This document shows, piece by piece, positions 53,634 to 56,012 of a stretch of 64,000 nucleotides of DNA (positions are counted from its first letter, which is position 1; each line of letters opens with the position of its first letter). The DNA comes from Escherichia coli. Its GTDB lineage: Bacteria; Pseudomonadota; Gammaproteobacteria; Enterobacterales; Enterobacteriaceae. Below the pieces are notes generated by a model. The model did no database searches, was not told where the DNA came from, and saw nothing but the letters and a program-made list of their open reading frames with translations. The DNA lies in the NCBI RefSeq assembly GCF_013122565.1, contig NZ_CP053258.1. One strand, given 5' to 3'. The translations under genes and the position numbers were made by a program.

Positions 53634-53646
53634 ATTGTCTGAGATC

Positions 53647-53724
53647 AGAGATACGGCTAATAACCGTATCTCTTGACAGAGTGAGCAGATGCACATAAAT
53701 TAATCATACGGTTGATAGCCGTAT
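53647..53724 (+). promoter_or_regulatory. promoter of the toxin-antitoxin operon bracketed by two palindromic candidate operators (ATACGG-N7-CCGTAT)
   Basis: Perfect 10-bp inverted repeat agagatacgg-ctaataa-ccgtatctct at 53647-53673 abuts -35 TTGACA (53673-53678); 17-bp spacer; -10 TAAATT (53696-53701); second palindrome atacgg-ttgatag-ccgtat at 53706-53724 lies just downstream of the -10; SD aaagagg at 53766-53772. Confidence 0.65.
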
Positions 53725-53777
53725 TATGTATGAGATCGACTCCCTACGATTTCATTCAGTTAATCAAAGAGGTCACA

Positions 53778-54089
53778 ATGCCTGGAAAAACAGCCACTCT
53801 ACCCGATGTCGATAAAACGCTGAAAAATGCGCGGGTTGAACTCAAAACCAGTCCCGACGCCAAAAACAGACTTCGTGAAGCTGCGCAAGCCGTTGGGTTA
53901 GATTTAAGCGCCTTTATTTTGAGCGCTGCTATGGAACGCGCCGAAAGCGTGCTTGATAACCAACGTCGCCGTGAGCTTTCGAATCAAAGCTGGGAACTGA
54001 TGAACCAACTCATCGCCGAACCTGCTCAACCGACGCTCGCACTCAAGGCGTTAATGAAAAGGAAAAACAGCGATGGTCGACAAGCATGA
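53778..54089 (+). CDS. type II antitoxin, DUF1778 (ribbon-helix-helix, TacA/AtaR-like), 103 aa
   Basis: Internal start of ORF 53712-54089 with good SD; MPGKTATLPDVDKTLKNARVELKTSPDAKNRLREAAQAVGLDLSAFILSAAMERAESVL... resembles DUF1778 antitoxins partnered with GNAT toxins; stop overlaps the next gene by 17 nt. Family assigned from memory, no search run. Confidence 0.75.
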   Translation: MPGKTATLPDVDKTLKNARVELKTSPDAKNRLREAAQAVGLDLSAFILSAAMERAESVLDNQRRRELSNQSWELMNQLIAEPAQPTLALKALMKRKNSDGRQA

Positions 54090-54615
54090 AGAGATTACTC
54101 TGCCCATAGTCCTCTCCTGTAATTATCAGTCTGATATTACTTATCCTGGGCAAAAACAGTTTGATTGCGGTAACCCTGTTATCGATAAATTTGTACGCAC
54201 ATCGCTAAAGAAAAGTGTGCGTAATAGCGACTGTGCGGCTAAAGCACTTATTGACAGACAAAGTGGTGAACTGATTGGCATCTGTACTTTTACGGCATAT
54301 TCGCTGGAAAAACAACGCGTTTCTGGCGTCCTTCAGGGTTCACAGCCTTCAGAGATTGGTGTTGTCAGATTAGTCATGTTGGGGGTGGCGCGGAAGTATC
54401 AAAAGCGGGGCTTTGGTCAGGACCTACTATGTGATTTTTTTGAACATGTAAAAATAATTCACCAGGCATTACCAATTAAAGGGGTTTATCTTGATGCTGA
54501 CCCTGCCGCCATTAACTTTTATGCTCGTCTCGGCTTTGTTCAGCTTTCAGCGACACCAAATGCTTTTGGTGCTGTACCTATGTTTTTGGCGATTCAGCAT
54601 ATTCTCGCGGCTTAG
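54073..54615 (+). CDS. GNAT-family acetyltransferase toxin (TacT/AtaT/ItaT-like, predicted aminoacyl-tRNA acetylating), 180 aa
   Basis: Acetyl-CoA binding motif A (VARKYQKRGFGQDLL = R-x-x-G-x-G), conserved FDCG N-terminal motif and NFYARLGF motif B; translationally coupled to the upstream DUF1778 gene. The specific named family member is not recognised. Confidence 0.75.
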   Translation: MVDKHEEITLPIVLSCNYQSDITYPGQKQFDCGNPVIDKFVRTSLKKSVRNSDCAAKALIDRQSGELIGICTFTAYSLEKQRVSGVLQGSQPSEIGVVRLVMLGVARKYQKRGFGQDLLCDFFEHVKIIHQALPIKGVYLDADPAAINFYARLGFVQLSATPNAFGAVPMFLAIQHILAA

Positions 54616-54648
54616 ATTATTATCGCCACCCGCCAGGGCAAGTCTTGC

Positions 54649-54665
54649 CTCAGCCGGGGGCTGAG
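54649..54665. terminator. short hairpin between the convergent toxin gene and the Sel1-repeat gene
   Basis: ctcagcc-ggg-ggctgag inverted repeat in the 55-bp gap between the two stop codons; no strong T-run. Confidence 0.45.
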
Positions 54666-54670
54666 TAGCG

Positions 54671-55606
54671 TTACCACTTTTGTTCAATTGCCCCCGCTTT
54701 CAGCAACTCCACATCCTTGCCGTTAATGGTTGCCGTTGCGGCAACGATTGTGGTCCTTACAGTTGCACAAGATTTTCGCTCAAATTCCGGTTTATAAAGA
54801 ATTAGAGACGAATTACTGGTAAATGAATCAAATATGTAATCAGTAAAGCTAATATTCAGCCGGTTTAAACCGAAAGGCGCGAAGCCAACCGTTTGGTTAA
54901 TCTCTTTACCGGATGGGCTACGAATGCTGAATGTCACGCGAAGATTGGCCACTTCGCCTAATTTATTGGTGGTGACGAAGAGGCTATCCATGCAGGAAAA
55001 ACCTTTATCTAAAAAATTATCCCGCATCCCAGAACGGGTAACCGTGATCACGGGTAATGTATCGTCAACCGTTTTTCTGTCAATCATGTCTTTTCGACAT
55101 GTAGCCAGAAAGTCTTCCGGACCACCATAAATGTGGACACCTTTATCAAGATATTCCTTCGCTTTCTTACAATCTACCTCAACATACTGACCATTGGCGT
55201 ACATCATGCCCAACCTGGACCATGCTAAATTCACACCGTATTGCGCGGCCTGATTAAATAGTGCATACGCTTTGGCATAATCCACCCGCACCAGCTCACC
55301 GTCGTAGTAGATACTCCCCAGCGCTAACGGAGCTTCTCTGTCACCGTGTTTAGCGGCTAACTCGAACCATTTAATCGCTTCCTGAACATCAGGTTTGGTA
55401 TCATAACGAGGCTGATAATATTCCCAGCCTAACAGGCTCTGCGCGTCGACATCTCCCAATTCAGCCATTTTATGCAGTGTATTTATAACATCGGGCGCAG
55501 GTTGACCACCATATATGCTGTCATACAATTCATGAGCTTTCTCGCTTGCCACCACGCCTGGTGAAACTATTAGCATTAAAGAAAATAATATTCTTTTAGT
55601 TAACAT
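54671..55606 (-). CDS. secreted Sel1-repeat (TPR-like) protein with uncharacterised C-terminal domain, 311 aa
   Basis: ORF 54671-55666; start placed at Met21 (SD AAGG 6 nt upstream) giving signal peptide MLTKRILFSLMLIVSPGVVA; three Sel1-like repeats (e.g. AIKWFELAAKHGDREAPLALGSIYYDG, AYALFNQAAQYGVNLAWSRLGMMYANG, AKEYLDKGV); C-terminal ~170 residues match no family I recognise. Confidence 0.7.
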   Translation of the reverse strand: MLTKRILFSLMLIVSPGVVASEKAHELYDSIYGGQPAPDVINTLHKMAELGDVDAQSLLGWEYYQPRYDTKPDVQEAIKWFELAAKHGDREAPLALGSIYYDGELVRVDYAKAYALFNQAAQYGVNLAWSRLGMMYANGQYVEVDCKKAKEYLDKGVHIYGGPEDFLATCRKDMIDRKTVDDTLPVITVTRSGMRDNFLDKGFSCMDSLFVTTNKLGEVANLRVTFSIRSPSGKEINQTVGFAPFGLNRLNISFTDYIFDSFTSNSSLILYKPEFERKSCATVRTTIVAATATINGKDVELLKAGAIEQKW

Positions 55607-56012
55607 GTATACCTTTATGTCCTCACTGTCATATATTTCCATAATAATTAACCACCAAGCATCCATTTAATGAATAAATACAGTGCCATAAATGCCCAAG
55701 TAATAAGCACACATTTAGCCTGAAACATTATCATCCATGTCACCAAATCGTTTATTTAGTAAGATAAAACTAGCATATTCGTAAGATAAAAAATGCACAT
55801 GGTAATCAAGAAATGATATTATTATTTTTTTGATGTAAAACTATTTAGCTTTAAAATTCATTTTTTCAACATATAGAGCATTCATTTTATGAATGCAAAA
55901 AACATACCTGACACACAAATTATTCTCCTCTGTAATATTTTCTCATTAACACTCTGTTTACCCAACATGCGCTCCGCACTACACTATGTGGGCATTTTTT
56001 TAAGAGGTGGTA

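Follow-up and report, generated by a model that had tools for sequence, protein, structure and literature searches.

We analyzed the interval between cyoE and yajR in a 64,000-nt stretch of Escherichia coli DNA (contig NZ_CP053258.1 of assembly GCF_013122565.1; hereafter the window). The cyoE stop codon at 53593 and the yajR start codon at 56013 are separated by 2,419 bp, and the listing of open reading frames (ORFs) together with the RefSeq annotation of near-identical loci showed three intact genes in this gap. They encode a DUF1778 antitoxin, a GNAT toxin and a Sel1-repeat protein. In a K-12-type strain, the cyoE-yajR spacing is 148 bp and the three genes are absent. Judged by their sequences, the first two genes are the published toxin-antitoxin pair itaR-itaT. 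The features of the locus are collected in Table 1.

Table 1. Features of the cyoE-yajR interval and its flanks (positions in the window)
Feature	Position	Strand	Basis
cyoE (heme o synthase), left core flank	52703..53593	+	ORF; annotated cyoE in near-identical loci
cyoE intrinsic terminator hairpin; final sequence shared with K-12 ahead of the block	53609..53632	+	Terminator scan
Variable block, 2,366 bp, in place of 98 bp of K-12-type sequence	53637..56002	.	Alignments to K-12
Palindrome 1, ATACGG-N7-CCGTAT, just 5' of the -35 element; candidate operator	53651..53669	.	Inverted repeats I3 and I17
Putative itaRT promoter, TTGACA-17-TAAATT	53673..53701	+	Promoter scan, 10/12 matches
Palindrome 2, ATACGG-N7-CCGTAT, just 3' of the -10 element; candidate operator	53706..53724	.	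Inverted repeat I3
itaR, DUF1778/ribbon-helix-helix antitoxin, 103 aa	53778..54089	+	ORF; PDB matches; RefSeq DUF1778 / TacA family antitoxin
itaT, GNAT aminoacyl-tRNA acetyltransferase toxin, 180 aa	54073..54615	+	ORF; PDB 7BYY match
Sel1-repeat protein, 311 aa, predicted signal peptide and C-terminal beta-sandwich	54671..55606	-	ORF; Pfam; structural model; convergent with itaT
AT-rich (29.8% GC) divergent promoter region of the Sel1 gene and yajR	55607..56002	.	Composition; blastn and alignment
Cargo-linked yajR promoter allele	55927..56002	+	Alignments and identity matrix
yajR (MFS transporter), right core flank	56013..57377	+	ORF; annotation of near-identical loci

The boundaries of the block were determined by alignment to K-12. 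On the left, where cyoE is 98.1% identical to K-12, homology stops at 53636 or at 53633 in two alignments. On the right, the boundary is sharp and the block reaches the yajR ribosome-binding site. The first-pass annotation, which was made from the window sequence alone, had placed a segment at 53640-55900; a block does lie there, and its ends were corrected to 53637-56002. The three genes that it described as lacking a K-12 counterpart at this locus, namely a DUF1778 antitoxin, a GNAT toxin and a secreted Sel1-repeat protein, were confirmed by the comparison of the K-12-type spacing with that of the window and by matches to PDB 7BYY, KacA and the Pfam Sel1 family, secretion being a prediction. 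It recognized the class of the toxin-antitoxin pair and missed its identity as the published ItaRT. The other features that it reported, a segment more AT-rich than its flanks, strongly so before yajR, the lack of an integrase, transposase, tRNA or direct-repeat scars, and the position of the block as the only sizeable accessory segment in 64 kb, also agree with the results given below.

The ItaT sequence was compared with the PDB. It matched the E. coli ItaT G115D structure (PDB 7BYY) at 178 of 180 residues (E value 1.6e-117), and one of the two differences is the engineered G115D of that entry; the window protein has the wild-type G115. In the published work, G115D was introduced to inactivate the toxin for crystallisation, G115 is the acetyl-CoA glycine, Y150 is the catalytic tyrosine, and the acetyl-CoA motif is Q/RxxGxG/A (PMC7367177). 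In the translation of the window gene, QKRGFG is found at 110-115, which fits the QxxGxG motif, and both G115 and Y150 are present. The PDB matches of ItaR were KacA (E value 3.5e-11) and the DUF1778 antitoxin chains of 6AJM, 6GTO and 6GTS, and the ItaR homologue of Escherichia sp. E4694 carries the Pfam TacA1 domain (PF08681). In the NCBIfam search, only weak sub-threshold matches were obtained for ItaR, ItaT and the Sel1 protein. The itaT start overlaps the itaR end by 17 nt. With BL21, which possesses the same three genes at the same cyoE-yajR position, the identities were 178/180 for ItaT and 101/103 for ItaR; only allelic substitutions, at T43 and P144 of ItaT and at R31 and L41 of ItaR, distinguish the two. 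By this measure, the GNAT and DUF1778 genes correspond to the already characterized ItaT and ItaR.

The ItaRT system was described from E. coli HS and is "virtually identical" in BL21(DE3) (PMC6125619). The genes of the window are essentially those studied by Wilcox et al. (2018; PMC6125619) and by Zhang et al. (2020; PMC7367177), the gene overlap and the upstream promoter region included. ItaT is toxic, and its main target is Ile-tRNA(Ile), which is acetylated; ItaR binds and neutralizes ItaT, and the ItaR-ItaT complex represses the itaRT promoter (PMC6125619). Val- and Met-tRNA are also substrates (PMC7367177). According to the literature on the HS proteins, acetylated aminoacyl-tRNAs cannot be used in elongation, so that translation stops. 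In ribosome profiling, ribosomes paused at Ile codons, and the cells are rescued by peptidyl-tRNA hydrolase (Pth) (PMC9177977). Since the window proteins are nearly identical to those of HS, we infer growth arrest by aminoacyl-tRNA acetylation and its neutralization for the window pair as well: ItaT would acetylate chiefly Ile-tRNA(Ile), and ItaR would neutralize ItaT.

ItaRT shares its organization, a DUF1778/ribbon-helix-helix antitoxin gene upstream of a gene for an aminoacyl-tRNA-acetylating GNAT toxin, with TacAT of Salmonella, AtaRT of E. coli O157:H7 and KacAT of Klebsiella. KacT, KacA and several unnamed chains of GNAT N-acetyltransferase toxins were among the PDB matches of ItaT and ItaR. 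However, these systems are only distantly similar to ItaRT in sequence (E values of 1e-5 to 1e-9), and the tRNA preference differs: ItaT has a preference for Ile, Val and Met, whereas TacT3 and AtaT2 have one for Gly (PMC9177977). We also observed itaRT homologues with about 72% nucleotide identity on non-mobilizable plasmids of Citrobacter freundii (H84 and H85, ~97-99 kb) and more distant homologues on Rahnella and Serratia plasmids. No plasmid match extends into the Sel1 gene.

The putative itaRT promoter is conserved in BL21 and in Escherichia sp. E4694 and partly conserved in Pseudocitrobacter, in which CTTGAC and a related -10 element, ATAGATTA, are found. In E. coli HS, a 172-bp upstream fragment acts as a repressible promoter, and most of the putative site falls inside this fragment (PMC6125619). 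Two ATACGG-N7-CCGTAT palindromes surround the promoter. Palindrome 1 is conserved in Pseudocitrobacter, and palindrome 2 is largely kept there, with a different final base. From their sequence and position, the two palindromes are likely to be operators of the ItaR-ItaT complex.

The third gene is called a tetratricopeptide/Sel1 repeat protein by RefSeq in near-identical loci. Three Pfam Sel1 repeats (PF08238) were detected in the protein, which also matches solved Sel1-repeat proteins. The N-terminus (MLTKRILFSLMLIVSPGVVA, then SE) has the character of a Sec signal by inspection, and residues 1-19 have low values of the predicted local distance difference test (pLDDT) in the AlphaFold model (18 homologues, pLDDT 86.6). 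In this model, helical repeats occupy residues 16-178 and a beta-sandwich residues 187-309. Four cysteines are invariant across the family. These features suggest that the protein would be exported to the periplasm through a Sec signal peptide. Most bacterial Sel1-repeat proteins are periplasmic or secreted. The most likely function is that of a protein-binding adaptor. A longer reading of 331 aa, starting at 55666, was rejected, since RefSeq calls the 311-aa form and the signal peptide stands at the start of that form. A hairpin between itaT and the Sel1 gene was examined as a bidirectional terminator and was also rejected, since its fold energy could not be told apart from that of shuffled sequences (z = -1.15) and the terminator scan did not flag it.

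Compared with E. coli CFT073 c5321 (PDB 4BWR), Helicobacter HcpC and Legionella LpnE, the window protein has a much shorter array (3-4 repeats), and the beta-sandwich of about 125 residues fused to the repeats is absent from those proteins. The sequence of this C-terminal domain gave no match in the PDB. Its structural alignment with the E. coli interleukin receptor mimic protein A (IrmA, PDB 5EK5) showed 18% identity, with no detectable sequence similarity. Beta-sandwich folds recur widely, and the likeness to IrmA therefore does not establish homology or cytokine binding. In Shigella sonnei records, a partial Sel1 protein of 193 aa (P0014, 377 member sequences; 93% identical) was found, which suggests that the gene may be truncated in the S. 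sonnei lineage.

The distribution of the block was investigated in 5,426 complete E. coli genomes, and a genome holding at least 80% of the query was counted as a carrier. The block was detected in 1,367 genomes (25%). When the flanks were included in the query, the number of carriers was again 1,367. Since the counts with and without the flanks are identical, the block always lies between cyoE and yajR. The carriers include BL21, O111 strains and HUSEC2011, and E. coli HS is also a carrier (PMC6125619). In an evenly spaced sample of 30 non-carriers, all 30 showed the same 730-bp empty span. The identity of the block to that of the window was at least 99% in 18 genomes, 95-99% in about 1,333 (mostly about 97.5%), 90-95% in 18 and lower in one. 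The allele of the window is thus the rarer one. No identical block was found on a phage, plasmid, transposon or other chromosomal site; the PLSDB matches above 95% were megabase-sized 'plasmid' records that resemble pieces of chromosome. Literature searches on cyoE/yajR/Sel1 and on itaRT by phylogroup returned nothing relevant.

The same interval was then compared among relatives. In a Pseudocitrobacter genome, cyoE is accompanied by itaR, itaT, a Sel1 gene (308 aa) and a large Sel1 gene (494 aa), and no yajR was found within the 12.5-kb locus. The identities to the window are 91% for ItaR and ItaT, 93% for CyoE and 59% for the Sel1 protein. The left junction after the terminator, "TTTTTTATTGTCTG", is common to E. 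coli and Pseudocitrobacter; the stem of the cyoE terminator is changed in the latter. In Escherichia sp. E4694, the order is yajR, large Sel1 gene (499 aa), Sel1 gene, itaT, itaR and cyoE. Relative to this arrangement, the window lacks exactly the large Sel1 gene, and blastn and alignment showed that 55644-56002 of the window is homologous to the region upstream of the large Sel1 gene in E4694 and E4930. The large Sel1 gene itself was detected in none of the 5,426 E. coli genomes, in which only about 75 bp of its upstream region matches. Escherichia sp. E4930 has the arrangement of E4694 without itaRT. In E. albertii, the order is yajR, Sel1 gene, a gene for an uncharacterised 325-aa protein and cyoE. 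The 325-aa protein (L011, 5048-6025) has a signal-peptide-like N-terminus, and its gene takes the position that itaRT has in the window; nothing significant was found for the protein in Pfam. In a second E. albertii genome, this gene is split into pieces of 89 and 227 aa (L012, 5048-5317 and 5342-6025).

In Salmonella enterica serovar Cerro, two tandem Sel1/beta-sandwich paralogues of 503 aa and at least 480 aa are located upstream of yajR (L016, 1-2964), and their identity to the proteins of Escherichia and Pseudocitrobacter is 33-46%. The empty allele is present in a second Salmonella contig (L017), whose yajR is 99% identical to that of Cerro. In Citrobacter, the interval contains two DUF1493 genes or one DUF1493 and one DUF8209 gene (L018, 2400-3250; L021, 2495-3303), and in a C. 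farmeri genome (L020) it is empty. These results show that the cyoE-yajR interval is a variable locus and a cargo hotspot in several genera, and that the Sel1 family has occupied it for a long time.

The last ~85 bp of the block are a divergent allele of the yajR promoter, despite a yajR gene that is 98-100% identical to that of K-12. Over the ~85-90 nt 5' of yajR, the window, E4694, E4930 and E. albertii are 83-94% identical to one another and about 61% identical to K-12. In the identity matrix for the 90 nt 5' of yajR, the value for K-12 against the empty Salmonella or Citrobacter alleles is 0.70-0.71, and for K-12 against the window it is 0.61. The window and the Sel1 type of Salmonella Cerro have a value of 0.67 and share motifs. 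In contrast, over its first 600 nt yajR strictly follows the species boundaries: 1.00 for K-12 and BL21, 0.98 for K-12 and the window, and 0.99 for the two Salmonella sequences. In this comparison of 90 nt from a handful of genomes, the yajR promoter allele thus groups by cargo, not by species. If the block had simply been inserted or simply been deleted, the sequence adjacent to yajR should nearly match in both alleles. It does not. In the AT-rich promoter region, we also observed a 22-nt tandem direct repeat at 55756-55799 (TTAGTAAGATAAAACTAGCATA / TTCGTAAGATAAAAAATGCACA) and a palindrome with 8-bp arms at 55878-55896 (GCATTCAT-N3-ATGAATGC), which is kept in E. albertii and not in Escherichia sp. 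E4694. Both may be sites for regulators of the divergent Sel1 and yajR promoters.

BL21 and K-12 both belong to phylogroup A and are otherwise nearly identical, and their flanks were compared in 500-bp bins. In most outer bins, the difference is 0-0.2%, with two bins at 0.8% and 2.6%. Around the locus, it is 0.4-4.8% in nearly all bins over about 19 kb from ampG to thiL (BL21 locus L022, ~8400-27600, against the K-12 locus L023). This divergent stretch looks like the footprint of homologous recombination with a more distant E. coli.

Signatures of mobility were searched for in the region. No tRNA was found in the tRNA scan, no match in the Rfam scan, and no transposase or integrase ORF in the ORF list of 52-58 kb. 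The search for direct or terminal inverted repeats flanking the block gave only short matches at the level of chance. In the PADLOC defence models, neither ItaR nor ItaT was matched, and the Sel1 protein had only a spurious match (E value 0.001). The block shares with classical genomic islands, which are linked to a tRNA, bear an integrase and are flanked by direct repeats, its accessory nature, its AT-richness and its toxin-antitoxin cargo. However, it has no integrase, tRNA or repeats, is only 2.4 kb long and is fixed at one locus. Unlike such islands, it seems to behave as an allelic block exchanged via homologous recombination.

The GC content of the block is 42.6%, against 51.3% (standard deviation 2.75%) for 2,366-bp windows across the whole 64 kb, and that of the 396 bp preceding yajR is 29.8%. 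The GC content at third codon positions (GC3) is 0.38-0.46 in the three block genes and 0.58-0.68 in the flanking genes. A GC content of 42.6% over 2,366 bp is also found at ~19.0-21.4 kb of the window. The region 17500-23000, which contains hha-tomB-ylaC-maa-pdeB and a part of acrB, is present at a coverage of at least 80% in 5,419 of the 5,426 E. coli genomes and is core. With a core stretch, hha-pdeB, just as AT-rich as the block, low GC by itself is no mark of foreign DNA in this window, and we rejected it as proof of a foreign origin. Outside the block, the window and K-12 are collinear but for an intergenic indel of about 100 bp between adk and hemH at 2523-2575. There, the window has 53 bp and K-12 has 157 bp, and the indel may be a repetitive extragenic element of K-12; apart from it and the block, the 64 kb show no structural difference from K-12. 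In BL21, a transposase gene of IS421 (IS4-like) lies between lon and clpX, and it is absent from K-12 and the window.

Based on these results, we consider it probable that the segment is the chromosomal itaRT with an adjoining Sel1 gene, forming one of two alternative alleles of the cyoE-yajR interval, and that homologous recombination between the flanks exchanges the two. Both of them, the block of 2,366 bp and the 'empty' allele of 98 bp, would be old haplotypes, and the block would carry its own allele of the yajR promoter. Its passage among lineages of E. coli would depend on homologous recombination within the core genes on either side and not on site-specific insertion, which would explain why the block has no mobility genes. 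The first-pass annotation had read the same segment as a strain-specific insertion. This fits the absence of the block from K-12, its GC content, and a GC3 well under that of the flanking genes, and the homologues on the C. freundii plasmids indicate that this toxin-antitoxin family travels on plasmids. Even so, a foreign 2.3-kb cassette recently dropped into a K-12-like site of this strain or its close relatives, by a mobile element or by illegitimate recombination, is very improbable. The region lacks every one of the mobility signatures listed above, and the block occurs in a quarter of the complete genomes at one site as several alleles that are 1-10% or more apart. Moreover, the block does not merely interrupt the K-12 site; it takes the place of 98 bp there and comes with a different yajR promoter. 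Homologous blocks occupy the same locus in other Escherichia and in Salmonella and, beside cyoE only, in Pseudocitrobacter, from which ItaR and ItaT have diverged (91%) about as far as CyoE (93%). The equally AT-rich core stretch within the window removes the argument from composition. A recent insertion is thus largely refuted, and with it the words 'strain-specific' and 'insertion' and the use of low GC as a sign of foreign acquisition; the description of an accessory segment without a mobility signature stands. The genes were not found in K-12 or in essentially all E. coli with a core-like composition; they are missing from K-12, and a quarter of the genomes have them.

The opposite course, in which the segment is purely ancestral and the empty site is the scar of its simple deletion in the lineage of K-12 as well as in the remaining 75% of E. 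coli, is better supported than a recent insertion and still improbable. It agrees with the Sel1 gene at the locus in E. albertii and in two unclassified Escherichia, with the cyoE-itaRT junction common to Pseudocitrobacter, and with stepwise losses: the large Sel1 gene is gone from all E. coli and from E. albertii, and itaRT is gone from E4930 and E. albertii. However, the 98 bp of K-12 are not a subset of the block, and the common ~85-bp promoter region of yajR is only ~61% identical next to a coding sequence that is 98-100% identical. The K-12 allele is also nearer to the empty alleles of Salmonella and Citrobacter than to the block allele of E. coli. A different question is whether the three genes form one functional unit, in which the Sel1 protein cooperates with ItaRT, perhaps as a sensor or as the third component in defence or in the response to stress. 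The same order and co-occurrence in all 1,367 E. coli carriers, Escherichia sp. E4694 and Pseudocitrobacter speak for such a unit, to which we nevertheless give hardly any credence. The Sel1 gene faces itaT in convergent orientation, with a promoter region of its own, and a signal peptide is predicted for its product, whereas ItaRT is cytoplasmic. Each part also occurs without the other: E4930, E. albertii and Salmonella Cerro have Sel1 genes and no itaRT, in five other genera no Sel1 gene lies within 6 kb of the itaRT homologues (~70% identity), and the matches on plasmids are confined to itaRT. In addition, ItaRT alone is experimentally a complete toxin-antitoxin system (PMC6125619), and no PADLOC defence system was matched. 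The Sel1 gene is probably not part of the toxin-antitoxin system.

A wider version of the allelic exchange that we favour is conceivable, and we offer it tentatively as the less likely course: the cyoE-yajR interval might be an ancient presence/absence polymorphism common to several species, with cargo-bearing and empty haplotypes, each having a yajR promoter allele of its own, that persist or are repeatedly exchanged across Escherichia, Salmonella and relatives, and its cargo a fast-evolving family of periplasmic Sel1/IrmA-like beta-sandwich proteins. Several points weigh against the main interpretation given here. The haplotype comparison comprises 90 nt from ten sequences, so that the likeness by cargo across genera is no more than suggestive. 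Within Escherichia, the sample covers E. coli, E. albertii and two unclassified lineages, and the evolutionary reading is an inference from these few sequences. The divergent stretch between BL21 and K-12 is a mosaic in which the two strains agree over the first ~600 nt of yajR; it shows that recombination took place in the area, and not that a single event moved the block. The export and role of the Sel1 protein are predictions, and so is the proposal that the palindromes serve as operators.

For annotation, itaR and itaT are the names to be given to the genes called "DUF1778" and "GNAT family N-acetyltransferase" at this locus, which should not be marked as a novel island. Absence from K-12 together with low GC does not imply a recent insertion, and the cyoE-yajR interval is a useful control for scans that use these signs. 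A modest point beyond the known content of the locus is the yajR promoter allele, which accompanies the cargo from one species to another. If the polymorphism is indeed common to several species, the fast-evolving Sel1/beta-sandwich family could act in host or envelope interactions.

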